Shown piece by piece: positions 2,548 through 41,348 of a stretch of 41,348 nucleotides of DNA (positions within the stretch are counted from its first letter, which is position 1; the number at the start of each line of letters is the position of its first letter). Source of the DNA: Parcubacteria group bacterium (lineage in GTDB: Bacteria > Patescibacteriota > Minisyncoccia > Portnoybacterales > UBA2143); NCBI GenBank assembly GCA_013203625.1, contig JABMPX010000007.1, positions 1-41,348 of the forward strand, written 5' to 3'. The notes under the pieces were generated by a model. It was not told where the DNA came from. It worked only from the letters and a program-made list of their open reading frames with translations, and searched no databases. The translations under genes and the position numbers were made by a program.

Positions 2548-2560
2548 ATTTAAGAAATAT

Positions 2561-4300
2561 ATGAAAATTTTTCAGGGATCAAAAATTATCTGGCAATATT
2601 TGAAGGAATATAAAAGAAAAGTTTATTGGATTGCTCTAGTCGCATCAGCGGGTTCTATTATTAGCGCTGTTATCCCATATATTTACGGTCGTTTAGTTGA
2701 TTTAGCCATTACTGAATTTTCTAGGCTTGATCTTATTGGCGGCATACTTTTGATTTGGTTGATTTTGTCTTTATTTGGCGATTGGCTCAATCGGACATCT
2801 GGTTTTCGCGGCAACTATATTGGAGTGGATGTAGCTAATGATTTAATAGTAAAAATTAGCAGCCACATTGTAGATTTGCCTATAAGCTTCCATAAAGATA
2901 AAAAAATGGGAGAAATAAATCGCAGGATGAGTCGCGGGGCAAGTTATTTAGAAAATATTATTGGCGATATTTTATTCTATTTATTGCCAAGTTTTTTAAC
3001 GATTGTTATTGCGCTAGGGATAATGTTTCGGGTTGAGTGGCGTTTAGCCGGATCTTTAGCTATTGTTCTGTTAATTTATTCTTTAGCAACTATCTGAAAA
3101 ACGAACCCAATTGTTAGCGAGAATAAAAAACTTAACAAGATTTTTGAAAAGTCGTATGGATATCTTTTTGACGTTATTTCAAATGTCCAATTAGTAAAAT
3201 CGTTTACTCAGGAGAAAATCGAGAAAAAGAGAATCTATAGGAATTTTAGAGTTAAAATTAGCGAGTCAACTAAAGATTTCTACGGTTTCTGGAAAGATTT
3301 AAACGCTTGGCAAGATATAATTTTTAGCATCGGATTTGTTAGTGTTTTTGCTGTGGCTATTTTAATGTTAAGATCTGACGCGATTACCGCTGGCCAATTA
3401 GTTATGTTTATCGGTTATGTCAGTTTGGCTTACCGTCCTTTTGCTATGTTAGGCAGGCAGTATAAGCAATTGAGGTCTGGTTTGACTGCGATTGAGCGGG
3501 CTGAAGGACTTATGGAAGAAAAACCCGAAGCCAGTCCAAAAAGAAAAACCGAATTAAAAAACATTCAAGGCAAGGTTGAGTTCCAATCAGTTTATTTTGA
3601 TTATAACGCAAAACAGAAAGTTCTAAACGGCGTTAGTTTAAAAGTAAAGCCGGGTCAAATGGTGGCTTTGGTTGGCGAAAGCGGAGTTGGCAAGACAACT
3701 TTAGTTGATTTGATTTCCGGATACTATTTGCCTAATAAAGGAAAAATATTAATTGATGGACAAAATATTTCCAAAATAACCCTTAATTCATTAAGAGGCA
3801 ATATTGCATTAGTCCCTCAAGAGATCACGCTATTTAATGATACTATTAAGAATAATATTGGCTACGGAAAATTAAAAGCGACTGACGAAGAAATTATTGA
3901 AGCGTCTAAGGCGGCTCATGTTCATAAGTTTGTTCAGAAATTTCCTAAAAAATATGACCAATTGGTTGGCGAACGAGGAATTAAACTTTCTACTGGACAA
4001 AAACAAAGAGTGGCTATTGCTAGAGCCGTATTAAGAGATCCTAAAATTCTTATTTTAGACGAAGCTACTTCCAGCTTAGATACAGCTACTGAAAAATTAG
4101 TTCAAGAAGCTCTTGCTCGTCTTATTAAAGGCAGAACTACTTTTGTAATTGCTCATCGTTTAAGCACTATTCAAAAGGCCGATTTGATTTTGGTCCTTGA
4201 AAAAGGCATAATTATTGAAGAAGGCGATCACCAAGAACTTGTTTCCAAAGGCGGCGTATATAAGAAACTCTGTGAACTTCAGTCAACAGTAATTGGGTAA
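2561..4300 (+). pseudogene. MsbA-like ABC exporter (fused TMD-NBD) interrupted by a single in-frame TGA at 3095-3097
   Basis: ORFs 2561..3097 and 3353..4300 share one frame (offset 792 nt). The stretch 3098-3352 has no stop and encodes TMD sequence (SNVQLVKSFTQEKIEKKR...). Walker A is GESGVGKTT, the signature is LSTGQKQR, and Walker B is ILILDEATS. The joined length of about 579 aa fits a half-transporter. Confidence 0.75.
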
Positions 4301-4398
4301 ATTTTAAGAGACAGTTAAAAATAATTAAAATAATAATATTAATTGGTTGCTGGGGTAATAATTAAGAAGATTAAATAATGACTTAAAATAAAAAACTT

Positions 4399-5271
4399 AT
4401 GCATCTATCATTCATAATTTCACGTTTTTCTAATTTATTATTTTTTGTCCAGAAAACAAATCAGAATTGTTTAGTTAATTTTGATTTGAAAAAATATTTA
4501 GTCAATAATATTGATATCTCTTTTTATGGGAAAAACGAGGATGAAATTTGGAGACAGATTAGAAAATCAATTGGAAAACAAAACGCAGAACAATTTAAAA
4601 AAGCGGTTTTTCCAATAAGATCTATTTTTGATTCGCATTGGCAAGAAGCGTCAAATAATTTGCTTTTATGGAAACAGTATTTTCAAGACAATAGTACATT
4701 ATTTGAACAAGCTATTCTTGATATAAAAAAATTAAGCGGTGTAAGACATTTTGAACTTTCTAAAATTCCAATATATCTTATTTCTGATTCTCAAAGTAAT
4801 GATAAAGACATTAACGCCTGGTTTTCGTGGACGACAAAACAAAGTTTTGTAGTTGTTGAAATTCCAATATATCTTAAAGTATCTAATAATCTTTTCCCAT
4901 TAGGTGTTTTGGCTCATGAATTTTTTCATCTTATGTTAAAAAATAATAAAAATCTTGTTTTAGAAATTAATCAAATAGTTGAAAAAGATCAAATTCTACT
5001 TGCAAAATTACCAAAAGAACGTATTTCTAACAGAATGTTTTTTGAAGAATTGTTGGTTAGTTCTTTTATTCCAGAAGGTTATCTGGGCGAAAAATATTTT
5101 AGCGTTAAATCTATAGTTAATATTCCTAATCTAAAAAGTCTGTTAATCTGGCGGAAATTGATTGCTTTTAAAATGCGTCAAATAGCAAAAAAATATATTA
5201 ACAATAATCGACAAATTGATAAAGAATATTTAAACCAATTAATAAAAATTATTAGGCAAAATATAAAATAA
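4399..5271 (+). CDS. hypothetical protein with HExxH motif (possible zinc metallopeptidase)
   Basis: 290-aa ORF containing LAHEFFHLM (HExxH). I recognise no other family signature. Confidence 0.55.
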   Translation: MHLSFIISRFSNLLFFVQKTNQNCLVNFDLKKYLVNNIDISFYGKNEDEIWRQIRKSIGKQNAEQFKKAVFPIRSIFDSHWQEASNNLLLWKQYFQDNSTLFEQAILDIKKLSGVRHFELSKIPIYLISDSQSNDKDINAWFSWTTKQSFVVVEIPIYLKVSNNLFPLGVLAHEFFHLMLKNNKNLVLEINQIVEKDQILLAKLPKERISNRMFFEELLVSSFIPEGYLGEKYFSVKSIVNIPNLKSLLIWRKLIAFKMRQIAKKYINNNRQIDKEYLNQLIKIIRQNIK

Positions 5272-6831: not shown

Positions 6832-7791
6832 ATGCCAAAAGTATTTATTACTCGTCAGATTCCTGACAAAGGAATTAATTTATTAAAAGACAAGGGCTGG
6901 GATGTTTCAGTTGGCCCAGAAGATAAAATATCAAGAGAGGATTTATTAGAAGGTGTTAAAGGCGTTGACGCTATTTTGTCGGTCTTAACAGAGAAAATTG
7001 ACAAAGAAGTTATGGAAGCGGCTGGCAAACAATTAAAAATCATTGCCAATTATGCGGTTGGATATAATAACATTGATGTGGATGAAGCCAAGAGAAGAGA
7101 GATTGTAGTTACTAATACGCCAGGCGTTTTAACAGAATCAGTAGCTGAACATACTATTGCTTTTCTTTTTGCAATTGCTGAGAGAATAGTTGAAGCAGAT
7201 AAATTTATTCGAGCTGGCAAGTATAAAGCATGGGGACCAAAGATGCTTTTAGGAGCAGATATCCAAGGAAAGACATTGGGTATTGTTGGATTAGGTCGGA
7301 TTGGTTCAGCTGTAGCTCAAAGAATGCAAGATGGTTTTGATGTTAAAATTATTTATTATGACCTTAAACGCAATGAAGAATTAGAAGAAAAATTTGGCAT
7401 GGAATATAGAGAATTAGACGACTTATTAAAAGAAGCTGATTTTGTTAGTTTGCATACTGCTTTAACTGACGAAACACGTCATTTAATCAATGCAGAAAAA
7501 TTAGCATTAATGAAGCCAAGCGCTTATTTAATTAATACTGCTCGTGGTCCAATTATTGATGAAGCAGCTTTAGTTGAAGTGTTAAAGGAAAAGAAAATTG
7601 CCGGAGCTGCGTTAGATGTATTTGAAAAAGAACCGGAATTAATGCCTGGTTTAACTGAATTGGAAAATGTTGTTTTGACTCCTCATATTGCTTCAGCAAC
7701 TTTAGGAACTCGGGATAAAATGGCTGAAATGGCTGCTAATAATATAATTGCTGTTTTAGAAGGAAATGAGCCATTAAATCCAGTTAAGTAA
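6832..7791 (+). CDS. D-isomer-specific 2-hydroxyacid dehydrogenase (glyoxylate/hydroxypyruvate reductase-like)
   Basis: NAD-binding GIVGLGRIGSAVA. The catalytic region NTARG...D...LTPHIAS is typical of the GyaR/GhrB family. Confidence 0.85.
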   Translation: MPKVFITRQIPDKGINLLKDKGWDVSVGPEDKISREDLLEGVKGVDAILSVLTEKIDKEVMEAAGKQLKIIANYAVGYNNIDVDEAKRREIVVTNTPGVLTESVAEHTIAFLFAIAERIVEADKFIRAGKYKAWGPKMLLGADIQGKTLGIVGLGRIGSAVAQRMQDGFDVKIIYYDLKRNEELEEKFGMEYRELDDLLKEADFVSLHTALTDETRHLINAEKLALMKPSAYLINTARGPIIDEAALVEVLKEKKIAGAALDVFEKEPELMPGLTELENVVLTPHIASATLGTRDKMAEMAANNIIAVLEGNEPLNPVK

Positions 7792-29997: not shown

Positions 29998-30035
29998 ATG
30001 ATTAATAAAGAACTATATTATTTATCTATTATTTT

Positions 30036-30659
30036 TTACCAAGAAACAACTAAAGCGCTGTATTTCTCAAGATTTTTTAGTTGTTCCGGAGTTAATTGCA
30101 TAGAAGCGTCAATTGCTTCTTTTATTAAATCTTCGGAAAAGGCGATTTCATCTCCAACATTTAGCGGTTTAGAACCAATGTTGTCCTTGAGGTAATCCTC
30201 AATATAAATTTTATGTTCATTAGTCAATTCTTCAGGATGGTCTTTAGTGTAATCTTTAAGCGCTCGGCGAGCCAAATGGGTAACACCATTCCCCTTGGCT
30301 GCTTTTTCTATAATCGAGTTATTTTCCTTCCTGCCAGCTGGAATAATCTCTGTAATTTCAGTTTCCCCTGTAGATGATTCTGTAATTTCTTCAACAGCTA
30401 AGCCAGATATTTTCCCTTGGAGATCAGCAGTAAATTCTTCTCCTGATAATGAACCTATTTCATCTTGATTTTTTTGATTGGCGTATAAATAAATTCCGCC
30501 AGCTAAAATCAAAAGAGCGATAACTGGTAAAATAACTGAACTGCCATGCTTATTAATCCATCCCTTAGATTTTTCTCTCCAACTGTTTTTGTTCTTAAAA
30601 CCAAACTGAGGACCGCTAGTTAAAGGAGATTCTCCACCTTTTTGTTTTTGTTCTAACAT
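30036..30659 (-). CDS. hypothetical single-pass membrane protein
   Basis: One TM segment (VILPVIALLILAGGIYLY). I chose the start at MLEQKQ, which has an AGGAA Shine-Dalgarno; the listed upstream Met at 30707 is also possible. Confidence 0.5.
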   Translation of the reverse strand: MLEQKQKGGESPLTSGPQFGFKNKNSWREKSKGWINKHGSSVILPVIALLILAGGIYLYANQKNQDEIGSLSGEEFTADLQGKISGLAVEEITESSTGETEITEIIPAGRKENNSIIEKAAKGNGVTHLARRALKDYTKDHPEELTNEHKIYIEDYLKDNIGSKPLNVGDEIAFSEDLIKEAIDASMQLTPEQLKNLEKYSALVVSW

Positions 30660-30726
30660 AAATATTTCCTTTCTTAGAATTTCTTTATTCGACCTTTCCC
30701 TCCACATATTTAATTTTTAAAAAGAA

Positions 30727-32403
30727 CTAAATTTCAATTACCACTGGTAGAACCATTGGTCTTCTCTGTGTTTTAGTATAAAGGAATTGGCCGATTTTGT
30801 CACGTATATTATCTTTAACATAACTCCAATTGACTGTATGTTCGTCTGAAGATGTTTGTTCAACAATCTTTTTAACCTTTTCCCTTGTCTGATTTAAGAG
30901 CTCTTTTGATTCTCGCAGATAAACAAAACCGCGTGAAATAATATCTGGTTCTCCGCGCACTTTTCCAGTTTTGCTGTCAATTACGGTGATAATAACAAAC
31001 ATACCTTCTTCAGCCATAGATTGCCTGTCGCGCAGGACAACTTGGCCAACATCTCCGACTCCCAATCCATCAACCATAACATAATTAGCTGGCACTTTTT
31101 CCTTGCTTAATTCAATTGAATTTTGGTTAACAGAAATAATATTTCCATTTCCAGCTACCATAATGTTTTTTGTATCAATACCTATACTTTCAGCAATTTC
31201 GCCGTGTAATTTTAGCATATAATAATTACCATGAATAGGGATGAAGAATTTGGGTTTAATTAAATTAATCATCATTTTGAGGTCTTCTACTTGAGCATGT
31301 CCGCCAGCATGTATATCCATCATTTGATAATGATAAACTCTTGCGCCTTGTCTCCAAAGAATGTCTTTTAGGCCTTGAACAGTTCTTTCATTCCCTGGCA
31401 CAACTGAAGAAGAAAAAGCAACAGCATCACTTTTTTGAATTTGGATATTGCGGTGTTCTTTATTGGCTATTCGCATTAAAACAGCGTTTCCTTCACCTTG
31501 AGCTCCAGTGCAGACAACCACTACTTTTCCGTTTGGATAATCTTTTATTTGATTAATTTTAATTAAAGTGCCTTTTTGCGCTTTAATATATCCCAGCTTT
31601 TTAGCTATTTGCGTATTCATTTTCATGCTATAACCGTCAACTGCTACTTTTCTGTCATACTTTTCAGCTAAATTGACTACTTCTTGAATACGGCTGATTA
31701 AAGAGGCAAAAGTAGCAATAATGATTCTGCCAGACGATTCTTTAAAAATTATTTCCAAATTATCCTGGATATCTTTTTCTGAAATAGAATGGCCTGGTTT
31801 TTCCGCATTAGTACTGTCTGACATTAAAGCTAAGATGCCTCCATTAGCAATTTCAGAGATTCTGGAAATATCAGCTGGTTCATCGCCAATCGGGCTATGG
31901 TCAAATTTAAAATCTCCAGTATGGACAATTTTGCCAACTGGCGTTTCAATAACCAATCCAACTCCATCAGGAATATTATGGTTAACATGAAAGAATTCAA
32001 TATTAAAACAGCCAAGTTTAATTTTAGAATCTTTATTGATTTGACGAATATCTAATTTAGGCGCTTCTGGAAAATCATCCTGTCTTTTAAGGATAATTCC
32101 TCTGGTTAAAGCAGTAGTGTAAATAGGCGGATTGCCCAAACGTTTCATTGAATGGGGGATTGCTCCAATGTGGTCATAATGGCCGTGGGTGATAATAATG
32201 CCGTGGATTTTATCTCTTTTGTCTTTAAGATAGGCTGTATTAGGTATGATATAGTCAATTCCAGGCATATCTTCTTCTGGAAATTGTAAGCCCATATCAA
32301 CAATAATAATGTCGTCGCCATACTCAAAAATTGTCATATTGCGACCGACTTCTTCTAATCCCCCTAAAGGGATAATTTTTAGATTTTGTGTTGTTGTTGT
32401 CAT
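30727..32403 (-). CDS. rnj: ribonuclease J
   Basis: Metallo-beta-lactamase HGHYDHIG, beta-CASP region, and a 558-aa length typical of RNase J. Confidence 0.9.
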   Translation of the reverse strand: MTTTTQNLKIIPLGGLEEVGRNMTIFEYGDDIIIVDMGLQFPEEDMPGIDYIIPNTAYLKDKRDKIHGIIITHGHYDHIGAIPHSMKRLGNPPIYTTALTRGIILKRQDDFPEAPKLDIRQINKDSKIKLGCFNIEFFHVNHNIPDGVGLVIETPVGKIVHTGDFKFDHSPIGDEPADISRISEIANGGILALMSDSTNAEKPGHSISEKDIQDNLEIIFKESSGRIIIATFASLISRIQEVVNLAEKYDRKVAVDGYSMKMNTQIAKKLGYIKAQKGTLIKINQIKDYPNGKVVVVCTGAQGEGNAVLMRIANKEHRNIQIQKSDAVAFSSSVVPGNERTVQGLKDILWRQGARVYHYQMMDIHAGGHAQVEDLKMMINLIKPKFFIPIHGNYYMLKLHGEIAESIGIDTKNIMVAGNGNIISVNQNSIELSKEKVPANYVMVDGLGVGDVGQVVLRDRQSMAEEGMFVIITVIDSKTGKVRGEPDIISRGFVYLRESKELLNQTREKVKKIVEQTSSDEHTVNWSYVKDNIRDKIGQFLYTKTQRRPMVLPVVIEI

Positions 32404-32422
32404 AGTTTTTAATTTGTTAGTG

Positions 32423-32505
32423 TGCCGAAGAAGGGATTCGAACCCTTAAGCCATAAAGGCACACGGTTCTGAACCGTGCATGTTTACCAATTTCATCACT
32501 TCGGC
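32423..32505 (-). tRNA. tRNA-Leu (anticodon CAG), type II with long variable arm
   Basis: Hand fold. Acceptor GCCGAAG/CTTCGGC. A 3-bp D stem. Anticodon stem CACGG/CCGTG with loop TTCAGAA. Variable arm GCC-TTTAT-GGC. T arm AAGGG-TTCGAAT-CCCTT. Discriminator A, with no encoded CCA. Confidence 0.9.
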
Positions 32506-32506
32506 A

Positions 32507-32535
32507 TTGACCAAATCAGTTTTTTAAGTTATGAT
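32507..32535 (+). promoter_or_regulatory. sigma70-type promoter
   Basis: ATTGACCAAAT-type -35 (TTGACC)-N17-TATGAT, upstream of ORF 32603. Confidence 0.5.
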
Positions 32536-32602
32536 TTAAATAAATTCAGATCTTTAACTTTTAAAATTTAGAAAAATAATCTTTTCTGGAGGGGAGGGAA
32601 TT

Positions 32603-32797
32603 ATGGATCCTATAAATTCTATAAATTCTGTAATAAGTTTTGTGATATTTCTTTTCCTAACCGCCGTTATATTAGCAGGAGGAGAAATGGCTAGGGTTGG
32701 AAGTAAGCATTCAACGAGAATTGTTGGAAGCTGTTCCTTCTTATTCAGTGTAGTAGGATTTATGCTTCTGTTTTATTATTCCTTTGTAAACCAGTGA
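32603..32797 (+). CDS. small membrane protein (64 aa, two TM), hypothetical
   Basis: Strong Shine-Dalgarno GGAGGGGAGGG and two hydrophobic segments. Confidence 0.5.
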   Translation: MDPINSINSVISFVIFLFLTAVILAGGEMARVGSKHSTRIVGSCSFLFSVVGFMLLFYYSFVNQ

Positions 32798-32854
32798 ATC
32801 TTTTTAAAAGCCTGATTTAGATTAATCCAATAGATTAATCTAATGAGGGCTTTT

Positions 32855-33571
32855 TTATTTTAAATCTTTAAATAATTTCGGATTTTTGAGAAAATCCAGT
32901 TTTTTTAGGTTTTTAACCAAAGAATACAAACTTTTTTCTTTATCTATTTCGAATTTTTCCAGCCACTTATTTGGCTCCATAAACTCTAAATTAGGAATTG
33001 AATTGTAATTTCCGTTCTTGACCCAGTTTATCTCTTGAGAATCGTTTTTAAGGGCAAAATAACAGAATCCGCACTTTTTTCTGAATGGTTTGTAAATATT
33101 GGAAGAAAAATCTCGGCAAACCCAATTAGCTGTTTTTAATATTTCTCCAGAGGCATTAATTATTAAATGTTCATAATTAGGCAATACAATTACTTTGTCA
33201 TTCTTTTTAGCTTTTACTGCGTAAACATTTTTAATATCAGATCCATGGGAGTCCTGAAAAAGGAAAATAGCTTTTCCTTCTAAAACTTCGTAAATTTCAG
33301 AGTAAGTTAAATTGGTTTTAGGAACTAAAGGATGGTCATGTCCAGCTGTCTTATTGTATTCCTGTCCTAGCATTATAAAGGGAATGACTGTTATGTCGTA
33401 TCTTAATTCCTGTTTAATAATTGTTTGTTTGTCTTTTTTGCTATCAGCCAAATCGCGGTACATGTAATAGAGTTCTAAATCAGAGACTGTTTTAGCCCAT
33501 TCCTTATCAAAAAGAAGTTCTTTCATTTCTACTAAATAGCGAATATTTGGTTTAAGTTTCTTTATGTCCAT
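32855..33571 (-). CDS. cupin-type glucose-6-phosphate isomerase (archaeal-type cPGI)-like
   Basis: TAGHDHP...SEIYEVLEGKAIFL resembles the TxGHxH...E.Y.vl.G cupin PGI metal site. The assignment is from motif memory only. Confidence 0.55.
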   Translation of the reverse strand: MDIKKLKPNIRYLVEMKELLFDKEWAKTVSDLELYYMYRDLADSKKDKQTIIKQELRYDITVIPFIMLGQEYNKTAGHDHPLVPKTNLTYSEIYEVLEGKAIFLFQDSHGSDIKNVYAVKAKKNDKVIVLPNYEHLIINASGEILKTANWVCRDFSSNIYKPFRKKCGFCYFALKNDSQEINWVKNGNYNSIPNLEFMEPNKWLEKFEIDKEKSLYSLVKNLKKLDFLKNPKLFKDLK

Positions 33572-33574
33572 ATA

Positions 33575-35257
33575 TTACTTCCAAATTCTATTTATTTTAA
33601 TATACCAATTTTCTACTTGAGAAAATCTTTGTGATGGTTGAGCTAATTTTTCTATGGAAATTCCTCTTACTTTTTTATTAACCGGGTAAATATAGCTTGG
33701 GCTGTAAAGAAAAACACCTGGTACATCTTCCATAAGCAGTTTTTGGAATTCAGCATATTTTCCTTCGCGGGTCTCTTGGTCTAAAGTCTGTCTGGCATCT
33801 TGCAGTAATTCATCCACATCTTTGTTTTGATAAAGCGCTAAATTCAAGCCAGGGTCTTTTTTTTGTGAAGAGTGCCAGAAAGCAAAAGGGTCTGGGTCAG
33901 CGCTGAGCACTTCTCCAAAAAGTATAGCTTGGTATTCGCGGGGACGGATATAGTCTTTTTGAATGTTTGCCGCGTCAACTGTTTCCAAATTAACTTTAAC
34001 GCCGATTTTTTCCCATTGTTCTTTAATTAATTCAGCAGTTTGTTTTATTTCAGACCAATTAGTAGCTAATAAGCTTATTTCCAATCTTATTTCTTCCTCT
34101 CCTTCGCCTTTTTCTCTAATTCCATCATCATCTGAATCTATCCATGAATCTGCTTCTAAAATGTTTTTGGCATGTTCTATGGCAAAATCGTAAATATTTG
34201 TTTCTGCAGTATAATTTGGCCAATTAGGCAAAAGAGGCGAGTCAACTCTGGTGCCTTTTCCATTCAGAACTTTATTAATAATTTCTTCTTTATCAGTTGC
34301 ATAAGCCAAAGCTAATCGAACAGTTTTATTGGCTAAGGCCTTGCTTTCAGTTTGATTAAAGAAAATAGCGTAATAAATCGGCAGTTTAATTTCATATATA
34401 TTAAGATTATTTTTGATTTCTGACTGGTTGGCTGTTGAAAGAGAACTTAACCCGTCTATTTGTCTTTTTTGATAAGCATTAGTTAAATTTGTTTGATTGC
34501 TGTAAAATTTAAGGATAATATTTTTAATAAAAGGACTCTGGATTCTATTTTCAAACAACAAGTAAAAATTTTCATTGCGGACTAATTTAATTGATTCAAT
34601 CTTGCCATCTTTGTTTTTAACATATTCCTTGAACTTGTAAGGACCAGAGCCAACTGGCTTAAGATTGTATTCAGCCAAAGGAAAATTTTGTCCTGAAATG
34701 CCAGCCCAAAGATGTTTTGGCAAAATACCCACAGTTAAATTATGTAAAAAAGGAGCATAAATATTATTTAATCTAAATAAAACAGTAAATTCATCAACTT
34801 TTTCTATTTCCACGCCCTGCCAAATATTTCTTAAAGGACTGTTGTATTCAGGGTCCTGAATAGTTCTTATAGTAAAAATAACATCATCAGCTGAGAATTG
34901 TTCTCCATTATGCCAATGAACATTTCTTTTAAGAGAAACATTGTAAGTTAATCCGTCTTCTCCAAGGGAATACTCTTTGGCTAAATCAGGAATAAGATTG
35001 CCTTGATTGTCATATTTAAACAAACTGGAATAAACAAGCTGGACTAAATCTCTGTCAACATCATTTGTCTGAGCTAAAACTGGGTTAATATAGCGCGGCT
35101 GTCCAAGTATGCCTTCTTTGTATTCTCCTCCTATTTTAGGTTCAATAATAGTTTGATTGATATAAAAATTAAAAAGCAGGGTTACGCAAGAACCAGCAAT
35201 AATCAAAATTAGGCCTCTAGCTAACCAACGTTCTCGAAAAGGCAAGACCTTAAGCAA
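33575..35257 (-). CDS. ABC transporter substrate-binding protein, family 5 (peptide/nickel type), orphan
   Basis: N-terminal anchor and a 560-aa length. It has OppA/DppA/NikA-like sequence features. There is no adjacent permease or ATPase. Confidence 0.75.
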   Translation of the reverse strand: MLKVLPFRERWLARGLILIIAGSCVTLLFNFYINQTIIEPKIGGEYKEGILGQPRYINPVLAQTNDVDRDLVQLVYSSLFKYDNQGNLIPDLAKEYSLGEDGLTYNVSLKRNVHWHNGEQFSADDVIFTIRTIQDPEYNSPLRNIWQGVEIEKVDEFTVLFRLNNIYAPFLHNLTVGILPKHLWAGISGQNFPLAEYNLKPVGSGPYKFKEYVKNKDGKIESIKLVRNENFYLLFENRIQSPFIKNIILKFYSNQTNLTNAYQKRQIDGLSSLSTANQSEIKNNLNIYEIKLPIYYAIFFNQTESKALANKTVRLALAYATDKEEIINKVLNGKGTRVDSPLLPNWPNYTAETNIYDFAIEHAKNILEADSWIDSDDDGIREKGEGEEEIRLEISLLATNWSEIKQTAELIKEQWEKIGVKVNLETVDAANIQKDYIRPREYQAILFGEVLSADPDPFAFWHSSQKKDPGLNLALYQNKDVDELLQDARQTLDQETREGKYAEFQKLLMEDVPGVFLYSPSYIYPVNKKVRGISIEKLAQPSQRFSQVENWYIKINRIWK

Positions 35258-35384
35258 ACGAGTCCATTGTTTATAAGTAGGCCATTTTTCTACTTTGAAA
35301 TAAGATATTAATTTGTTTGATTGAGTACTGATGGAAATAAAAATTAAGACCTAAGTAAATGTAAGTTTTAATTAAGGATTAGAT

Positions 35385-35603
35385 TTAGATTATAAGATTC
35401 AAAAAAGCAGTAATAATAAATAAACTAGCCAAAACAATGCTAGTTGTAAAAAGTATTTTTTCAAAACCTCTTTTAGTGTAATAACTAGTTCCTCCGCCAG
35501 AACCAAAAATACCTGAACCGCCAGCGCCGCGTCGTTGAAACAGGATAGTGATAATCAGGCCTATAGAAATAATAACTTGAGAAATAGTTAAAATATATTG
35601 CAT
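35385..35603 (-). CDS. secG: preprotein translocase subunit SecG
   Basis: 72 aa. Two TM segments flank the Gly-rich RRGAGGSGIFGSGGG loop. Confidence 0.8.
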   Translation of the reverse strand: MQYILTISQVIISIGLIITILFQRRGAGGSGIFGSGGGTSYYTKRGFEKILFTTSIVLASLFIITAFLNLII

Positions 35604-35956
35604 TAATCTTTTTTCTTTTTTCGGCCAGTTCCAAAGACCATATTAACAAAACTAATAATTACGACTCCCCAGACATATGCCCAGATTCCAACAATAGTTA
35701 GCTCATCCACTAAGTATTCCAATAGCCATAAAAGGCCTATGTTGATGACAATGAAAAACAATCCTAAGCTAAGAATAATAAAAGGAGTTGAAATAAAACG
35801 CAGAATAGGCCTAAGAATAACATTCATTAAACCTAAAAGCAATCCAGCGATAAGTAATGTTAAAATATCGCCTTCAAAAATAAAGCCGGGCACTAAATAA
35901 TCAGCTAAAAAAATAGCCACGGCATTAACAAAAATTTGCGCAATGAATTTTATCAT
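35603..35956 (-). CDS. DUF360/phage-holin-IV-family membrane protein
   Basis: Four TM segments with an MIKFIAQIFVNAVAIFLADYLVPG N-terminus. The longer start at 35992 is possible. Confidence 0.6.
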   Translation of the reverse strand: MIKFIAQIFVNAVAIFLADYLVPGFIFEGDILTLLIAGLLLGLMNVILRPILRFISTPFIILSLGLFFIVINIGLLWLLEYLVDELTIVGIWAYVWGVVIISFVNMVFGTGRKKKKD

Positions 35957-36008
35957 TTGTTTAATATTATCATATAATAAAAACCCAGTCAAGATTTTGT
36001 AAATAATA

Positions 36009-36176
36009 AGGACAGTCCTTCAAAATGATGTTCTTTGAAAAGTTTTAAGAGGCTTGTCCTTCAAAATGATGTCTCTCTGAGAAAGTTAAAGAGGCTTGTC
36101 CTTCAAAATGATGTCCCTTGAGTACAAGGGCGTCATTTTAAGGACGACGCCTCTGGATCAGGACGACGCCTCTGGA
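36009..36176. repeat. intergenic repeat cluster: three 41-42-bp tandem units, a long imperfect hairpin, and a 16-bp direct repeat
   Basis: GTCCTTCAAAATGATGT occurs at 36015, 36056 and 36098. The hairpin is 36098-36120/36125-36145 with loop AGTA. GGACGACGCCTCTGGA occurs at 36142 and 36161. Confidence 0.85.
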
Positions 36177-36178
36177 TT

Positions 36179-36313
36179 TTACTTCCTCTTAATAATCCTT
36201 TGTAATCTAAAAACACTCTTGCCAGAAACCTTCATTTTTGGCTTTTTCTTTTTTTCTCTTTGCTTTGCCTTGTTTTTAACTTTTTCCTCAATTTCTTCCA
36301 AATTATTTTTCAT
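36179..36313 (-). CDS. small lysine-rich ORF (44 aa), hypothetical
   Basis: Hand translation: MKNNLEEIEEKVKNKAKQREKKKKPKMKVSGKSVFRLQRIIKRK. A TATAAT box lies 6 nt upstream of the ATG (leaderless geometry). The ORF is below the ORF-track cutoff. Confidence 0.35.
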   Translation of the reverse strand: MKNNLEEIEEKVKNKAKQREKKKKPKMKVSGKSVFRLQRIIKRK

Positions 36314-36392
36314 ATTCTGATTATAGCATTAACTATTATTATACACAAATTCACTCTTGACAAACCCAACCATCTTATGCTAATATATAACC

Positions 36393-36510
36393 AAGTCCTT
36401 GTTCGTATTTTGCCTATTTCTGGCTTCGACCTCCGTGGCCATAAAGTAATCCCAGTGCCAAAATGATTCGAAGGGGAAAGAGTAAAAACAACAAGGACTC
36501 TTTCTTTTGT
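36393..36510 (+). ncRNA. candidate structured small RNA closed by a 10-bp terminal helix
   Basis: TTGACA(36357)-N18-TAATAT(36381) places the transcription start at the 5' arm AGTCCTTGTT (36394-36403). This arm pairs perfectly with AACAAGGACT (36490-36499) and is followed by CTTTCTTTTGT. Inner helices: ATTTTG/CAAAAT and CTGG/CCAG. Confidence 0.45.
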
Positions 36511-36517
36511 CTAAAAA

Positions 36518-36546
36518 TTGACAATTAAACTTTAATGTTTTAAAAT
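36518..36546 (+). promoter_or_regulatory. sigma70-type promoter of the ncRNA-RT unit
   Basis: TTGACA-N17-TAAAAT. The predicted start at about 36551-36553 coincides with the 5' arm of the closing helix of the GC-rich element. Confidence 0.55.
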
Positions 36547-36550
36547 CAAA

Positions 36551-36719
36551 GTAGATCAAGGAGCAGGCTTGCCAACTGCGGTGATACTAACCGCGAGGCA
36601 GTCAGTATCTGACTGCTGGAGAATTATCTATTACTCTCGGCGGCTTCCTGCTGAAGCAGCCCCGCCCTGAAGAAGAAGCTTACTCTATGAGGGTCGCCTA
36701 AGACGACCCTCAGATCTGT
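36551..36719 (+). ncRNA. GC-rich structured RNA immediately upstream of the RT (candidate retron msr-msd-type ncRNA)
   Basis: About 53% GC by hand count, in AT-rich surroundings. Four hairpins: 36578-36594, 36598-36616, 36639-36666 and 36688-36712. Closing helix GTAGATC/GATCTGT. No ORF. Confidence 0.55.
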
Positions 36720-36757
36720 TCTTTAATAAAAATCCATAAGAAAAGGAGGATTTAGTA

Positions 36758-37927
36758 ATGATTAGTAAAGATCTATTGACTAGTGTTTTAGATTGGCCAG
36801 AAGAGAAAATCAATAAAGCTGTTCTTTTTAAAGATAGCTATAGACTGATAAACAGAAAGAAGAAAGATGGTTCTTTAAGAAAGATATATGCTCCTCATCC
36901 AGACTTGAAAAGATTCCAGAGAAGATTTCTTAAATATTTTCTCTACCGAATACCACTTATTTCATCTCTTCCCATTAATGGTTTTAGACCTAAATTTTCT
37001 TATATTGATAATACTAAGGAGCATGCTCAAAAAAATGTCAGGTTTGTTTTACGGTTAGATTTCAGAGATGCTTTTCCTTCGGTTAAAATAGAATACCTTA
37101 GAATTATTCTTAAAAAAGTTTTATTTTTAGAAGTGAAGGGGTATATGGAAAAGAATTACAGACAAAGGCCTTTATTTCCAAATAAGAGAGTTCAATGGTT
37201 TCGAAAATTGCTTAGAGATTTACCCCAGCTCAATCTATTTTCTGTTGACCCTTTAAAAATATTAGATGAGTTTGTTGAGCTGATTCTCCCACTGATTACT
37301 TATCAAGGGAAACTTCCTCAAGGAGCTTCCACCTCGCCTTGTCTTCTTAATATTGTTCTTTGTTATTCAGGTCTTTTAGAAAAAATCTATCAATTTCTCT
37401 GGGATAATAGAATTTTGTTTTCTGAAAATGATGTATCTATGGTTAATTCTACCATCTATGCTGATGATTTAACGATTTCTTCTTCAGAGCCGATTTCTCG
37501 AAGCTCGATTAATCAGTTGATTGATTTAATTGAACAAGAATCGCCTTTTAAAATTAATCGGCAAAAGATTTCTTATTTTAATCGAGCACGGATTGCCCCT
37601 TTAGTCACTGGTCTTCGTATAGTTAGATTAGTTAAGGAAGAAATAGAATTAGAAAATTTCTTATCAAATAAAGACTTGACTTACAAGCAGAAGAAAAACA
37701 TTCTCCGGAGAACGCTCAATAAAAAAGGGAAATGGATTATTACTTCAGTTAGCTTGCCTAAGAAGCAAATCAGAAGAATTCGCGGATTAATTTACAGGGC
37801 TATATCTGAAAAGGCGCTTGCTCCAATTATAGACGGCCATATGGCTAATCTCAAAGCTATCTATGGCCAGAACCTTCCTAATCAAATAATGGTTCCTTAT
37901 AAAAAATATCTAATAACAGAGGGCTAG
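36758..37927 (+). CDS. reverse transcriptase, retron-type
   Basis: RT domains 1-7 are present: KKDGSLRKIYAP, NGFRPKFSYIDNTKEH, LDFRDAFPSV, LPQGASTSPCLLN, YADDLTIS, and INRQKISYF. PLVTGLRIV shows VTG in place of the group II FLG. AGGAGG lies 8 nt upstream. Confidence 0.85.
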   Translation: MISKDLLTSVLDWPEEKINKAVLFKDSYRLINRKKKDGSLRKIYAPHPDLKRFQRRFLKYFLYRIPLISSLPINGFRPKFSYIDNTKEHAQKNVRFVLRLDFRDAFPSVKIEYLRIILKKVLFLEVKGYMEKNYRQRPLFPNKRVQWFRKLLRDLPQLNLFSVDPLKILDEFVELILPLITYQGKLPQGASTSPCLLNIVLCYSGLLEKIYQFLWDNRILFSENDVSMVNSTIYADDLTISSSEPISRSSINQLIDLIEQESPFKINRQKISYFNRARIAPLVTGLRIVRLVKEEIELENFLSNKDLTYKQKKNILRRTLNKKGKWIITSVSLPKKQIRRIRGLIYRAISEKALAPIIDGHMANLKAIYGQNLPNQIMVPYKKYLITEG

Positions 37928-37948
37928 GAGATAATCTCCCAGCCCTTT
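37921..37948 (+). terminator. hairpin overlapping the RT stop codon (probable terminator)
   Basis: GGGCTAGGAGA/TCTCCCAGCCC, 10 of 11 bp paired, followed by TTT. Confidence 0.45.
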
Positions 37949-37952
37949 AAAA

Positions 37953-37981
37953 TTGACCAAATCTAGCTAGTAAAGTATTAT
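37953..37981 (+). promoter_or_regulatory. sigma70-type promoter of the yjbQ operon
   Basis: AATTGACCAAAT...-N17-TATTAT. It is near-identical to the 36-bp module at 40345-40380. Confidence 0.55.
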
Positions 37982-37999
37982 TAAAGCAGAGGGCTTAAA

Positions 38000-38404
38000 A
38001 TGAAAATAACAATCTCCACCAAAGGACATAATGATATTATTGACATTACTGATAAAGTAGCTGAAAAAGTCAAAGAATCCAAAGTTGAACAGGGGATTGT
38101 TTTAGTATTTGTGCCACATCAAACCTGCGCTATTAGTGTTTTAGAATATGAACCCGGCCTAATACAAGACCTTAAAGATTTGCTTAATAAAATAGCCCCG
38201 CTCAAAGGGGATTATGAGCATAATAAGGCATGGGGTGATGGCAATGGAGCAGCGCATTTATTAGCTTCTTTAATCAAGCCTGATTTAACAGTTCCTTTGG
38301 AAAATAATCATCTTATTCTTGGAACCTGGCAAAAAATCATTCTGCTTGATTTTGACAACCGTGCCTGCGAAAGAGAAGTAAATATTACAATTATTGCGAA
38401 TTAA
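38000..38404 (+). CDS. yjbQ: YjbQ/UPF0047-family protein (secondary thiamine-phosphate synthase-like)
   Basis: HQTCAISVLEYEPGL..., YEHN...NGAAHLLASL, and LGTWQKIILLDFD match the family pattern. Confidence 0.8.
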   Translation: MKITISTKGHNDIIDITDKVAEKVKESKVEQGIVLVFVPHQTCAISVLEYEPGLIQDLKDLLNKIAPLKGDYEHNKAWGDGNGAAHLLASLIKPDLTVPLENNHLILGTWQKIILLDFDNRACEREVNITIIAN

Positions 38405-38407
38405 AAA

Positions 38408-38974
38408 ATGAACTACAAAAACTATATTTATTCTTTTCGGTATTTTATTCTAGTATCTTTGCTTATTTTTTCTTTTTCCATAATCTACGGCTGTATAACG
38501 GCCCAAGTCTCGCCTGAGCAAACAAAGGCAATTATAGAGGAATTTAAGGATGTTTATAAGCCAATTTTACAAGCTTCTCCTTTTGTCCAATTCTTGCTTG
38601 TTTTTTTGAATAATGCCTTTGCTGCATTTTTAGTTATTGTTTTATCCATTATCTTCGGCATTGTTCCTGTTTTGGCCTTGGTTTCTAATGGTTTTCTTTT
38701 AGGAATCTTTGCTTTTCTCTGGACACAGGAATTTTCTCTATTTACGTTTTTTAAAGGAATTCTGCCTCATGGGATTATAGAAATTCCTGTTTTAATTGTT
38801 GCTTCAGCTATTGGATTAAAAATTGGATATATTGTTTTTATAAGAGTTTTTAGAAAACAAGGTGAAATAAAGCTGGAAATTATTAATGGTCTTAATTTTT
38901 TCATTAGAATTCTTCTGCCTTTAATTCTGATTGCCGCTGCCATTGAAATCTTTATCACTCCATTATTTTTTTAA
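38408..38974 (+). CDS. SpoIIM-like integral membrane protein
   Basis: Five to six TM segments with the GILPHGIIEIPVLIVASAIGL motif of the stage II sporulation protein M family. Confidence 0.65.
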   Translation: MNYKNYIYSFRYFILVSLLIFSFSIIYGCITAQVSPEQTKAIIEEFKDVYKPILQASPFVQFLLVFLNNAFAAFLVIVLSIIFGIVPVLALVSNGFLLGIFAFLWTQEFSLFTFFKGILPHGIIEIPVLIVASAIGLKIGYIVFIRVFRKQGEIKLEIINGLNFFIRILLPLILIAAAIEIFITPLFF

Positions 38975-38980
38975 TAAAAT

Positions 38981-39598
38981 ATGACTATTCAAATAATAAA
39001 AAATAAAAGCAATTTGCCAGACAATGAGATGGGAAGAATAATGGCAGAATATGAATTAAAGCTTGAAATTCCAAAAGAAAAGTTGGAAAGACAGATTATG
39101 ATTTGTCCAGTTGGAATTATTGGGGCAGGCAAGACAACAGTAATTAAGTCATTAAGCAAGAAATTGAATTTATTATGCATTTCTACTGATGGAATCAGAG
39201 AATTATTAAAAGAAAATAATTACGATTATGAGAGAGCCAAAGAAATAGCAGTTAGGTTGGCTGAAAAGTATATTAAGAAAAATTTTAGCATTGGATTAAA
39301 TACAGATTGCGTATCAGAAGAATCGCAAAGATATATCAGACAATTTAAGGATAAATACAATGTTAAAGTTTTTTGGATTCATATTAATCCTCCAGAGGAA
39401 TTTATTATTAATAAGTTACGGAATTATAAACATACTTGGCTGTTTAAAAATGCTGAACATGCAGTAGGGGCTTATAAAAGAAGAAAAGCGGCTCATAAAA
39501 ATCTGAATTTTCCTTTTATTTATACTTTTGACCCATCTCGCGATGATTTAGAAAATCAGATTGACGAAGTTATTTCTATTATTAAAAAAAATAAATAA
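38981..39598 (+). CDS. P-loop NTPase/kinase-like protein (AAA_33/zeta-toxin-like size class)
   Basis: Walker A GIIGAGKTT in a 205-aa protein. It is tightly packed behind the SpoIIM-like gene. Confidence 0.6.
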   Translation: MTIQIIKNKSNLPDNEMGRIMAEYELKLEIPKEKLERQIMICPVGIIGAGKTTVIKSLSKKLNLLCISTDGIRELLKENNYDYERAKEIAVRLAEKYIKKNFSIGLNTDCVSEESQRYIRQFKDKYNVKVFWIHINPPEEFIINKLRNYKHTWLFKNAEHAVGAYKRRKAAHKNLNFPFIYTFDPSRDDLENQIDEVISIIKKNK

Positions 39599-39720
39599 AA
39601 AAGAGGACGATGCCTTTGGATAAAATCTCACGTAGTTTTTTATTGTATTGACAATAAGCATGCTTTTATGGCATACTTGTTTTAGTTCTTAAATAAAAAC
39701 ATTTTAAAAGGAGGATGAAA

Positions 39721-40290
39721 ATGGAAGAACAAAAAGTTATTTTTTTGAAAGGAAGGAAATCAGTTCTCCGTCCACTTAACAAAGAAACAGATTTGCAATC
39801 TTGTTTGCGCTGGATTAATGATCAGGATGTTATCCAATATGTAAGCGCGTATCTGCCAAGTTCAACACAGGACGAAGAAGAATGGTTTAATAATCTGCAG
39901 AAAAGAAAAGAAGACATTGTGCTGGGGATTGAGACATTAGTCGGAGAGTTTATTGGGGTAACTGGGTTGCATAATATCAATTGGAAAGACAGAACTGCTT
40001 CTCATGGAGTTATTGTCGGAGAAAAAAAGTATTGGGGCAGAGGTTATGGCACAGACGCTAATATGGTTTTACTCGATTATGCTTTTAATACTCTTAATCT
40101 TCGTAGAATCTATTCTAGTGTAATTGCCTTTAACGAAAGAAGTTTGCAGTACCATCTTACCTGCGGATATCAAATTGAGGGAGTACAGCGCAAGCAAGCA
40201 TATAAAAAAGGGAAATATTGGGATGTAATCTTCCTTGGTGTTTTTGAAGAAGAATGGTTACTTGCTTCTGGGGAATACCAAAAAAAGTAA
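39721..40290 (+). CDS. GNAT-family N-acetyltransferase (RimJ/RimL-like)
   Basis: LRPL...D, GYWGRGYGT and the N-terminal pattern fit RimJ/L-type GNATs. I chose the second ATG for its 6-nt spacing to AAAGGAGG. Confidence 0.75.
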   Translation: MEEQKVIFLKGRKSVLRPLNKETDLQSCLRWINDQDVIQYVSAYLPSSTQDEEEWFNNLQKRKEDIVLGIETLVGEFIGVTGLHNINWKDRTASHGVIVGEKKYWGRGYGTDANMVLLDYAFNTLNLRRIYSSVIAFNERSLQYHLTCGYQIEGVQRKQAYKKGKYWDVIFLGVFEEEWLLASGEYQKK

Positions 40291-40306
40291 ATAATTTTCA
40301 GCAATT

Positions 40307-40345
40307 AAGCTGGCGCAACGAAAAGAAACACGCGCCAGCTTTTTA
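40307..40345 (+). terminator. intrinsic terminator
   Basis: AAGCTGGCGC/GCGCCAGCTT stem followed by TTTT. Confidence 0.75.
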
Positions 40346-40346
40346 A

Positions 40347-40375
40347 TTGACCAAATACAGCTAAAAAGGTATTAT
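40347..40375 (+). promoter_or_regulatory. sigma70-type promoter with no ORF behind it
   Basis: TTGACC-N17-TATTAT, a duplicate of the yjbQ promoter module. It is followed by about 150 nt of non-coding, GC-enriched sequence. Confidence 0.5.
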
Positions 40376-40537
40376 TAAAGTAAGAATTTATGACTCAAGA
40401 GGCTTGTCCTTGAAAAAAGATAAGAGGTTTGACATTGAGAGTAGCGACATTACGCCAGAGGCGGAAGGTCACGCTCGAAAGGTCGAACCTTGATTATTAA
40501 ATCTATGCCTAAAAAACTCAAAATCAGCGATATTCAC

Positions 40538-40587
40538 TTGACACAGGTATAATATAGGTATAATATAGGTATAATTATACCTATAAT
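40538..40587 (+). promoter_or_regulatory. promoter/operator region of the Fic gene
   Basis: TTGACA-N17-TAATAT. AGGTATAATAT occurs as an 11-bp tandem repeat in about three copies. The perfect palindrome GGTATAATTATACC lies at 40568-40581. A further TATAAT lies 8 nt before the ATG. Confidence 0.5.
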
Positions 40588-40595
40588 GATTAAAT

Positions 40596-41348
40596 ATGAT
40601 TTATAAACTAGAAAAACCAGATTTGTCAAAAATTAATAGAAATAGGGCAATTAGGCTCGTTTTAAATAGAGAAAAACAAAGCATTTCAACTCTATTTAAT
40701 AAATCCTTTAGTCCTATTTATTTGTATTGGGATAAAATAAAATACAAAACACTACCTAAGAATATTTCTAAGGAAGAATTTTGGTATGCGATTAAATTTA
40801 TAAGACGCGCTCAACACTTAAAAACAGTTATTAAAAATGAAAATGGAGATTATTTTAAATGGTTGAGATTGCCTGATTTAGAACAGTTTCTTCATGAAGC
40901 AGATCTAAATACAGGAGGAGCTCTTTTTGGCTTTACAAAATCAATAGATGAGAAAACAAAGTATAAATTTATTTCAAGAGGAATAATAGAAGAAGCCATA
41001 GCTTCATCTCAATTAGAAGGAGCTAATACTACTCGTAGAGTTGCTAAACAGATGTTGAGAGAAAGAAGAAAACCAAGAACAGATGATGAACAAATGATTC
41101 TTAATAATTATATAGCTATGCAGGCCATTGAAGAAGAGTATAAAAACCAGAAAATTAGTTTAGATTTGCTTTTTGAATTACATAGATTAATTGCTAAAGA
41201 TACTATTAAAGAAGATGAGGTTGGGAGATTTAGAAAAGATAGTGAAGATATAGTAGTTGCAAATTCAGACAAAAGCGGAAAAATTTATCATATTCCTCCA
41301 AAAGCTGCTTTTATTAAAAAAGAAATTCAGGATTTTATTCAATTTGCA
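40596..41348 (+). CDS. Fic-family protein, N-terminal part (runs off the window end)
   Basis: Hand translation is open to the window end: MIYKLEKPDL...IASSQLEGANTTRRVAKQML...LHRLIAKDT...VGRFRKD. This is the typical N-terminal region of long Fic/DOC proteins. The HxFx(D/E)GNGR motif would lie beyond the window. Confidence 0.7.
   Translation, partial: MIYKLEKPDLSKINRNRAIRLVLNREKQSISTLFNKSFSPIYLYWDKIKYKTLPKNISKEEFWYAIKFIRRAQHLKTVIKNENGDYFKWLRLPDLEQFLHEADLNTGGALFGFTKSIDEKTKYKFISRGIIEEAIASSQLEGANTTRRVAKQMLRERRKPRTDDEQMILNNYIAMQAIEEEYKNQKISLDLLFELHRLIAKDTIKEDEVGRFRKDSEDIVVANSDKSGKIYHIPPKAAFIKKEIQDFIQFA

Follow-up and report, generated by a model that had tools for sequence, protein, structure and literature searches.

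Retrons are understood as tripartite, toxin-antitoxin-like immune systems composed of a noncoding RNA (ncRNA), a reverse transcriptase (RT), and an effector that is normally encoded in the same operon. Their RTs are defined by an NAxxH motif (region X) and a VTG triplet (region Y), besides RT1 to RT7 with YADD, and some retron RT clades, for which an msr-msd is not recognizable, may rely on unusually structured RNAs (Mestre et al. 2020, PMC7736814). Type XIII (myxobacterial Mx162/Mx65-like) retrons are taxonomically restricted and show signs of vertical inheritance (PMC7736814). The type VI retron is noncanonical: inverted repeats close a multi-arm RNA that carries a small toxin gene, and its multicopy single-stranded DNA (msDNA) is not constitutive (bioRxiv 10.1101/2025.10.22.683967). 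We analyzed a module made up of a promoter, a structured RNA, an RT gene, and a terminator (positions 36518 to 37948, forward strand) in 41,348 nt of DNA from a Parcubacteria group bacterium (Portnoybacterales, UBA2143; contig JABMPX010000007.1 of assembly GCA_013203625.1); this whole stretch is referred to here as the window. A preliminary description of the window had proposed a self-contained unit without a co-transcribed effector, and this was borne out by a conserved promoter and terminator and by the lack of any recurrent neighboring gene. On balance, we lean toward reading the module as an effectorless, two-part, retron-like RT-RNA element. What appears to be new is the cognate RNA family of a retron-branch RT, without an effector. 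A literature search for retrons or RTs together with the candidate phyla radiation (CPR) or Patescibacteria, incomplete in its coverage, returned no description of this RT-RNA family, and the main reviews mention the CPR only for diversity-generating retroelements (DGRs). The features of the module, and the promoter that follows it, are these:

36518 to 36546 (+): sigma-70-type promoter, TTGACA (36518 to 36523), 17-nt spacer, TAAAAT (36541 to 36546), 11 of 12 consensus matches
36551 to 36730 (+): predicted structured ncRNA, ~170 to 180 nt, ~53% GC, comprising P1, P2, P3, P4, a variable region, P6, and a tail
36551 to 36557 (+): P1, 5' strand, core AGATC (36553 to 36557), pairing with 36713 to 36719
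36558 to 36560 (+): P1/P2 junction, AAG; the AA is kept in most of the clade, with L003 and L092 as exceptions
36560 to 36570 (+): P2, 5' strand, GGAGCAGGCTT, pairing with 36676 to 36686 over 11 bp; the GGCUU(G) core is conserved
36577 to 36595 (+): P3 hairpin, 6 bp, from the fold and RNAalifold
36597 to 36617 (+): P4 hairpin, GGCAGTCAGTATCTGACTGCT, the family signature, with a conserved apical CAG-NAN-CUG and a covarying lower stem
36618 to 36675 (+): variable region, starting with a conserved UGGAGA, ending in a purine-rich GAAG, and holding a variable GC hairpin (36639 to 36666)
36676 to 36686 (+): P2, 3' strand, AAGCTTACTCT, partner of 36560 to 36570
36688 to 36712 (+): P6 hairpin, TGAGGGTCGCC TAA GACGACCCTCA, 9 to 13 bp, directly abutting the P1 3' strand
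36713 to 36719 (+): P1, 3' strand, GATCTGT, core GATCT (36713 to 36717), with two G-U pairs that extend the helix to 7 bp
36719 to 36729 (+): conserved single-stranded tail, TTCTTTAATAA, of which 36719 to 36726 are UUCUUUAA
36744 to 36749 (+): Shine-Dalgarno (SD) sequence of the RT gene, AGGAGG, kept in close relatives
36758 to 37927 (+): gene for a retron-type RT of 389 aa, starting at ATG 36758, with an RVT_1 match (8e-14) and an intact catalytic triad
37920 to 37946 (+): terminator hairpin, 12 bp, overlapping the RT stop codon TAG (37925 to 37927) and closing the unit
37953 to 37981 (+): next promoter, TTGACC-N17-TATTAT

The RT gene and its AGGAGG were found as previously outlined, and the protein carries the motifs that had been listed for it, YADD, QGxxxSP (as QGASTSP), and PLVTGL, together with an NAxxH-type motif (NTKEH). 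Homologous RT loci, coded L001, L081, and so on, served for comparison; most are metagenome fragments, and about 40 were compared in most tests. In 40 relatives, the catalytic residues D101, D236, and D237 were invariant, as were Q188, G189, S193, and P194, N85 and H89 of NAxxH, and T284 and G285 of VTG. The best 25 of 36 PADLOC matches were all retron RT models (RT_VI, 5e-30; III-A, 1e-28; II-A, 5e-28). The best NCBIfam match was retron_St85_RT (89 bits against a cutoff of 235), with group_II_RT_mat far behind (24 bits against a cutoff of 300), and a profile search of the PDB matched the RTs of retrons Ec86, Ec67, Kva2, Ec78, and Ec83 at 1e-22 to 1e-13 and group II RTs at about 1e-6. An AlphaFold model of the RT (predicted local distance difference test score [pLDDT], 92.1) gave the same picture when compared with the PDB by Foldseek: the top 17 matches were all retron RTs, with target-normalized template modeling (TM) scores of 0.36 to 0.71 (0.64 to 0.71 for most of the ~310-aa retron RTs), and they ranked above group II, DRT9, DGR, G2L4, and DRT2 RTs. 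The extra length relative to retron RTs of ~310 to 330 aa is due to two insertions, one helical and of ~50 aa between RT3 and RT4 and one of ~37 aa in the C-terminal domain, and not to an added domain; no fused effector domain was seen in the PDB profile alignment or in the AlphaFold model. By motifs, profile searches, and modeled fold, the protein groups with retron RTs, as the preliminary description had it, and is, by sequence, a catalytically intact member of the retron branch.

All of the elements that had been listed for the module were found where they had been placed or a few bases away. The promoter was present as described, and a TTGACA-N16-18-TAnnnT sequence ending 2 to 9 nt before P1 was found in 14 of 19 related loci. 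The predicted transcription start (~36551 to 36554) falls on the P1 5' strand, in agreement with the start at ~36551 previously placed at that arm of the closing helix. Similarity of the window to L081 and L001 starts at the -35 box. At the other end, the hairpin over the RT stop codon and the fresh promoter behind it were both seen as reported. In every close locus, the RT stop codon is followed by a hairpin, behind which L081, L001, and L083 have a run of at least 5 T residues; the sequence of this hairpin is quite different in L083 and L002. The downstream ORF (open reading frame) is convergent to the RT in 19 of the 29 loci in which one was called. Because the promoter position is kept, a terminator is present, and downstream genes are mostly convergent, the conserved unit comprises the promoter, RNA, RT, and terminator; judged from these sequence features, the structured RNA and the RT form one transcription unit with its own promoter and terminator.

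The RNA had been described as an ORF-free stretch of ~170 nt and ~53% GC, enclosed by a closing helix and folding into four hairpins. Its GC content was indeed 53.3% (36550 to 36699), against ~33% for the window, and no conserved ORF was found within it in the window or in relatives. The minimum free energy (MFE) of positions 36545 to 36730 was -69.1 kcal/mol (z = -5.0), and none of 200 dinucleotide shuffles was as stable. The MFE fold contained the closing helix (core AGATC/GATCT) and all four hairpins (36577 to 36595, 36597 to 36617, 36639 to 36666, and 36688 to 36712) and, in addition, the 11-bp helix P2, which the preliminary description had overlooked. P2 closes P3, P4, and the variable hairpin; the RNA is thus predicted to be a P1 stem bearing the P2 domain and P6. 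By analogy, P1 would correspond to the terminal inverted repeat a1/a2 of retrons. The variable region is a candidate template and not a stable long msd-type stem; in relatives, it varies in length from 37 to 180 nt (omitted stretch) or from 49 to 192 nt (folded stretch). Searches of Rfam with the window and with 12 homologous loci gave no match for the RNA; this family could be added to that database.

Homologous loci had been proposed as the place to look for covariation, and the upstream RNA was both conserved and covarying there. In the five closest distinct loci, similarity extended from the -35 box through the RNA, with a hypervariable middle, and RNAalifold on a MAFFT alignment recovered P1, P2, P3, P4, and P6; both partners had changed in 10 of the 42 pairs. 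Remoter loci showed the same layout by eye, with P4 conspicuous as G-NNNN-CAG-NAN-CUG-NNNN-C. A search for this pattern found it upstream of the RT in 42 of 66 loci scanned, of which 41 retained all 8 scored stem pairs. The stem took at least 10 different sequences, with GCAGUCAG, GCGGUCAG, GUCGGCAG, GGUAUCAG, and GCUGUCAG among the lower-stem variants. A covariance model built from five close sequences and run on 69 sources matched 41 RNAs. In the resulting alignment, 92.5% of cells were standard pairs, compared with 70.3% for shuffles and 28 to 47% when the columns were slid by 1 to 3, and 39 of the 42 pairs were changed on both sides. P1, P2, P3, P4, and P6 each covaried (pairs changed on both sides: P1, 5/5; P2, 11/11; P3, 6/6; P6, 9/9), and 99.1% of P4 cells were paired. 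Because this alignment was made by fitting the sequences to the model, its pairing figures are inflated; the fitting has no bearing on the slid controls, the pattern search, or the result from MAFFT alone. The P1 sequence differed wholly between subgroups (AGCGTG/CACGCT, AATTAAGTC/GACTTAATT, TTGGGC/GCCCAA, AACCTAAG/CTTAGGTT, and ATAAGTGGC/GCCACTTAT among the variants) and yet was always complementary and always directly after P6. In a cross-locus complementarity control, own-locus pairing averaged 7.25 bp for P1 and 6.95 bp for P2, against cross-locus values of 5.5 ± 1.8 and 5.7 ± 1.6. We prefer the alignment-based counts because this control was too permissive (G-U pairs were allowed, the search window was 80 nt, and the conserved tail was included).

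The P4 signature also mapped to one RT clade. In a neighbor-joining tree of 149 RTs from the fetched loci (midpoint rooted), all 37 P4-positive RTs fell inside one clade of 62, and many P4-negative members of that clade were contigs cut off upstream or had a variant P4. Given the shuffle test and the conservation and covariation in ~40 loci, the RNA features exceed chance. The linkage of RT and RNA is strict across the clade, and the RNA is a constant, coevolving partner of the RT. P4 is the likely RT recognition element. One distant subgroup (L012, L097, L098, L101, L106, L111, and L123) lacks P6; its members have shorter RTs (about 300 to 330 aa) and a simpler RNA, in which P1 is GGGACC/GGTCCC, AA stands on both sides of the P1/P2 junction, and UGGUAG follows P4.

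Behind P1, most loci carry TTCTTTAA(C)AA or a near variant. This tail is able to pair alternatively with 36558 to 36567, and its UUCUUUAA segment could be an RT contact, a weak terminator tract, or one arm of that alternative pairing. Such features raise the question of whether the RNA is merely a cis-acting leader or attenuator of RT expression, with the RT acting on other substrates and no complementary DNA (cDNA) made from the RNA. P6 and the T-rich tail downstream of it were flagged as terminator-like, the purine-rich 5' segment and the SD region are both possible pairing partners of the tail sequence UUCUUU, and an msd-like stem is lacking. However, the helices and the P4 sequence are kept across RTs that are only 25 to 30% identical, as is typical of a cognate RNA partner, and characterized retron-branch RTs work with an adjacent ncRNA (PMC7736814). 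Moreover, loci that lack an SD sequence keep the tail as well, and tail-SD pairing was for that reason rejected as the cause of its conservation. We therefore regard a leader as an improbable explanation of the RNA.

Set beside canonical retrons (Ec86/Eco1, Ec78, and Ec83), which are its best matches in sequence and structure, the module is alike in its NAxxH, VTG, YADD, and QGxxxSP motifs and in having an ncRNA directly upstream, on the same strand, and predicted to be co-transcribed, in which terminal inverted repeats enclose short hairpins. The RNA is contiguous with the RT, and its P1 end repeats are conserved in position and variable in sequence, as expected of a retron ncRNA. P3 and P4 are short, covarying hairpins. 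In contrast to canonical retrons, the module has an extra inner closing helix (P2, without a counterpart in the canonical scheme), the family-specific P4, and the 3' tail; it has no conserved effector gene or fused effector domain across ~40 loci; and it lies amid CPR core genes, not in defense islands or prophages.

Several points weigh against an effectorless retron-like element. There is no positionally conserved branching G beside the inverted repeat across the clade, whereas canonical retrons have one. G36560, in the AAG junction, is kept in the close family and is A or C elsewhere, and its role in priming is for that reason unproven; other subsets of relatives keep G36567 and G36571, in GGCUU-G, and these three are alternative candidate priming G residues. 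A long stable msd stem is likewise lacking, the variable region having z scores mostly of -0.2 to -2.2 against shuffles, and P6 is short (9 to 13 bp) and lost in one subgroup. Use of the RNA as a template is a prediction from homology. The covariation statistics derive largely from the model-fitted alignment, and the RT tree is unbootstrapped and includes no reference retrons. An effector could lie elsewhere in the genome, since most loci are metagenome fragments. Finally, a housekeeping context and local synteny are unusual for defense genes. By sequence, then, the RNA is not established as an msr-msd; the clade appears instead to be one of those with RNAs of unusual structure, for which the RNA is now defined.

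If the module is a two-part retron-like element, it would be expressed as a single transcript from its own promoter, with the structured ncRNA first, the RT mRNA next, and an intrinsic terminator at the end. The RT would bind its cognate RNA. Its likeliest contacts are the most constrained parts, P4 and the P1/P2 junction, the latter being kept together by the terminal inverted repeats. By homology with retrons, the RT may then copy part of its own RNA into a short cDNA, priming from a 2'-OH at the junction; the template would probably be the variable segment between P4 and the P2 3' strand, or else P6. Two mappings of a1/a2 are possible, and the sequence does not decide between them. P1 may serve as a1/a2, with copying starting in P6, or P2 may do so, with G36571 as the primer and the variable region as the template; the latter fits the canonical order better because the short hairpins come first and the variable template follows. 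More tentatively, we suggest that the RT-RNA(-cDNA) particle is itself functional, through a trans partner or as the cDNA or ribonucleoprotein, and does not guard a cis-encoded toxin. A bolder version, which we consider rather unlikely but worth stating, is a CPR-specific, effectorless branch of retrons whose functional output is the RT-RNA particle or its cDNA. It might then provide toxin-free immunity or a domesticated cellular function in these ultrasmall episymbionts, and priming might use the junction without a canonical branching G, either from an adenosine 2'-OH or with no branch.

The preliminary description had also considered a canonical tripartite retron whose effector is nearby and separately transcribed, with the yjbQ/SpoIIM-like/P-loop kinase operon, the GNAT gene, and the Fic gene as candidates. 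These genes lie within 3.5 kb downstream of the RT on the same strand, and the P-loop protein gave weak matches to Zeta_toxin and to defense ATPase models. To survey neighbors, ORFs up to ~5 kb from the RT were clustered, in 21 and then in 40 loci. No gene family recurred beside the RT across ~40 loci, and, the RT aside, no ORF cluster occurred in more than 7. The recurrent clusters reflect synteny of related genomes and comprised Mur ligase with a penicillin-binding protein (PBP); RmlD, nucleotidyl transferase, glycosyltransferase, and a sigma factor; PheRS alpha and beta; IleRS with RecO; EF-P; and MnmA. Other adjoining genes encode L32, L21, ArgRS, AspRS/LysRS, OMP decarboxylase, a P-type ATPase, a DNA alkylation repair protein, SmpB/IF3/L35/L20, RNase Y, and HU. 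Among the proposed candidates, only yjbQ recurred, and only in L001, the nearest relative, whose synteny with the window extends to either side of the RT; between the RT and yjbQ, moreover, come a terminator and then a new promoter. L081, whose RT is 77 to 79% identical to that of the window, has no further protein in common with any part of the 41-kb window. It has a Doc-type gene just behind the RT, which might seem to favor a nearby effector, but this Doc is unrelated to the window Fic, and Fic was rejected as a conserved neighbor. With most downstream genes convergent as well, the separate effector is unsupported, and we consider this explanation very unlikely. The Doc-type gene belongs to an arrangement (L081, 2025 to 2586) in which an ORF of ~48 codons and a gene for a 138-aa Fic/Doc protein directly follow the RT terminator and a promoter; from its layout, this resembles a Phd-Doc toxin-antitoxin pair.

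Because type VI retrons hide a toxin gene inside the RNA, a small ORF was sought there also. The window, L001, and L081 have a TTG-initiated ORF of 31 to 33 codons behind AAGGAG, but in L002 and L083 a stop at codon 2 ends it, and nothing comparable is conserved in the other loci; it was rejected as a hidden toxin gene. Thus, no conserved neighboring gene, small ORF, or fused domain accompanies the RT. RT_VI is the best PADLOC model for the window RT and for several relatives, which likens the module to type VI (Retron-Vpa2). The score is weak, however (103 to 117 bits), and the module has neither a conserved small ORF in its RNA, where type VI encloses a gene for a small toxic protein, nor the helix-turn-helix (HTH) protein gene that the type VI operon also carries.

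Effectorless pairs of an RT and an adjacent structured ncRNA are known among defense systems in DRT2 and DRT9, and the module could in principle work as they do, by rolling-circle or repetitive copying of a short template, the concatemeric or homopolymeric DNA product serving as the effector. The conserved pyrimidine tract at 36719 to 36724 could be a short repetitive template, and DRT9 and DRT2 RTs were among the fold matches (ranks 24, 34, and 42). Yet the RTs of those systems are of the UG/Abi class, retron RTs were far better matches by sequence and fold, and no UG/Abi model was among the PADLOC matches listed (25 of 36). A DRT2-style concatemer ORF is unlikely because, in 18 loci, almost every frame of either strand of the RNA contains stops, and a never-ending ORF was rejected on that basis, the count being approximate since the template boundaries are not fixed. 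We consider repetitive copying of this kind highly improbable. Two other classes of RT element were rejected. For a DGR, there was no template/variable repeat (the RNA region has no copy in 30000 to 41348 beyond chance matches), the motif is QGASTSP and not [I/L]GxxxSQ, and a DGR RT ranked 30th in the fold search. For a group II intron, no Rfam intron model matched at gathering or E-value thresholds, group_II_RT_mat scored 24 bits, and VTG replaces the group II motif.

The RT falls in none of the 13 described retron types by type-specific models. For calibration, RTs of Bacillus, Streptococcus, and Paraburkholderia retron loci were scored on these models and reached 377 to 535 bits on their own type and 150 to 350 bits on others, whereas the best type score of the window RT was 102.7 bits (RT_VI). 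Together with four relatives, the window RT scored 100 to 145 bits on type models and 54 to 95 bits on PADLOC RT_outgroup and RT_other. Typed retron RTs resemble one another more than any of them resembles this clade, which therefore is an outgroup to the 13 types; these profile scores place it as deep branching. The family is real but modest in size: a profile search over 1.84 billion representative proteins gave 281 clusters (50% identity) at E ≤ 1e-30, and 9,661 at E ≤ 1e-10, a level that admits retron-like RTs generally. The GTDB species genomes that were scanned gave only about 15 to 25 matches. Nearly all members belong to the CPR/Patescibacteria; the named sources were Saccharibacteria, Brennerbacteria, Kerfeldbacteria, Jorgensenbacteria, Peribacteria, Paceibacterota, and other Patescibacteria, besides one Omnitrophota metagenome-assembled genome and a few coassembly bins labeled Gammaproteobacteria. 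Of the readings left open by the preliminary description, a two-component RT-plus-ncRNA system and a new retron-like type in a reduced-genome lineage both fit these data. IMG/VR viral contigs held no close family member (best identity, 22 to 28%, besides a 71-residue fragment at 38%), and a viral origin was rejected.

Whether the RT-RNA pair serves conflict or the cell is less clear. The module is syntenic within sublineages, and the RTs of the window and L001 are 77% identical where the flanks are 64 to 70% identical; for L006 and L085, the values are 76% for the RT and 82 to 89% for most flanks. In L009, L090, and L092, the RT is found at one and the same site, with RmlD on one side and Mur ligase/PBP on the other, and has diverged to 33 to 41% identity, against 56 to 84% for the flanks. 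In L081, the module lies in a different genomic context. Fixed positions, patchy presence, and occasional fast divergence do not permit a clean call between a cellular role and a conflict role. A domesticated cellular RT-RNA pair, inherited vertically in the CPR and engaged in, for example, regulation, repair, or nucleic acid metabolism (its workings may be the same as those outlined above), would explain the kept positions, the location of the unit amid core genes in every locus, a GC content that matches the host, and the lack of close relatives on viral contigs, and type XIII myxobacterial retrons offer a precedent for vertical inheritance (PMC7736814). Genomic context has little weight here, however, because CPR genomes consist mostly of core genes. 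The family is also small and patchy, divergence of the RT at a fixed locus is more typical of conflict genes, and the L081 unit sits elsewhere, beside a toxin-antitoxin pair. We consider domestication unlikely, though a serious contender, and favor a conflict or defense role over it, tentatively and with slightly less than even confidence. The parallel with type XIII is limited to a taxonomically restricted lineage with signs of vertical inheritance: type XIII has effector genes and canonical long msd stems, and RT_XIII scores only 77 bits here.

A clade that keeps an RT and a coevolving RNA without an effector asks what such a pair does alone. Its position beyond every typed retron makes it relevant to the origin of retrons, and if it is basal to them, it may show retrons before effector recruitment. 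A compact 389-aa RT with a short, defined RNA that holds a variable segment is also a candidate scaffold for in vivo DNA production.

Several observations concern the surroundings of the module. Upstream of its promoter lies a second promoter-like site, TTGACA-N18-TAATAT with a TG extension (36357 to 36386), followed by a closed stem of ~107 nt (36394 to 36500; z = -2.5) and a T-rich run. From this layout, 36357 to 36510 (+) looks like a separate small RNA gene just 5' of the RT module promoter; the element had no Rfam match, and the stem was rejected as a part of the module, not being conserved in L001. The 770-nt spacer between a holin-like gene and the RT module also holds a very basic ORF of 44 aa, MKNNLEEIEEKVKNKAKQREKKKKPKMKVSGKSVFRLQRIIKRK (36179 to 36313, reverse strand), which is probably a real small gene because it is the only part of the spacer conserved with L001. 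At 36004 to 36147, there are three tandem units of ~42 nt with GTCCTTCAAAATGATGT, the last of which pairs with 36131 to 36147 as a hairpin; a related unit is present in the ~200-nt leader of the Fic gene (40398 to 40448). The 18-nt motif AGGACGACGCCTCTGGAT occurs in tandem at 36141 to 36158 and 36160 to 36177 and again at 39604 to 39621, between the kinase-like and GNAT genes, with a partial inverted copy near 40450.

The promoter behind the RT terminator is part of a 42-nt repeat (TTGACC-N17-TATTAT) that lies at 37945 to 37986, before yjbQ, and at 40339 to 40380, before the Fic leader, the two copies being 83% identical. The same promoter stands behind the RT terminator in L081 (1916 to 1950) and L001 (about 7215 to 7250), and in L081 it is kept though the downstream genes differ from those of the window. 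In L106, the IleRS adjoining the RT module (1140 to 4730, reverse strand) bears an inserted histidine phosphatase (His_Phos_1) domain at residues 501 to 686.

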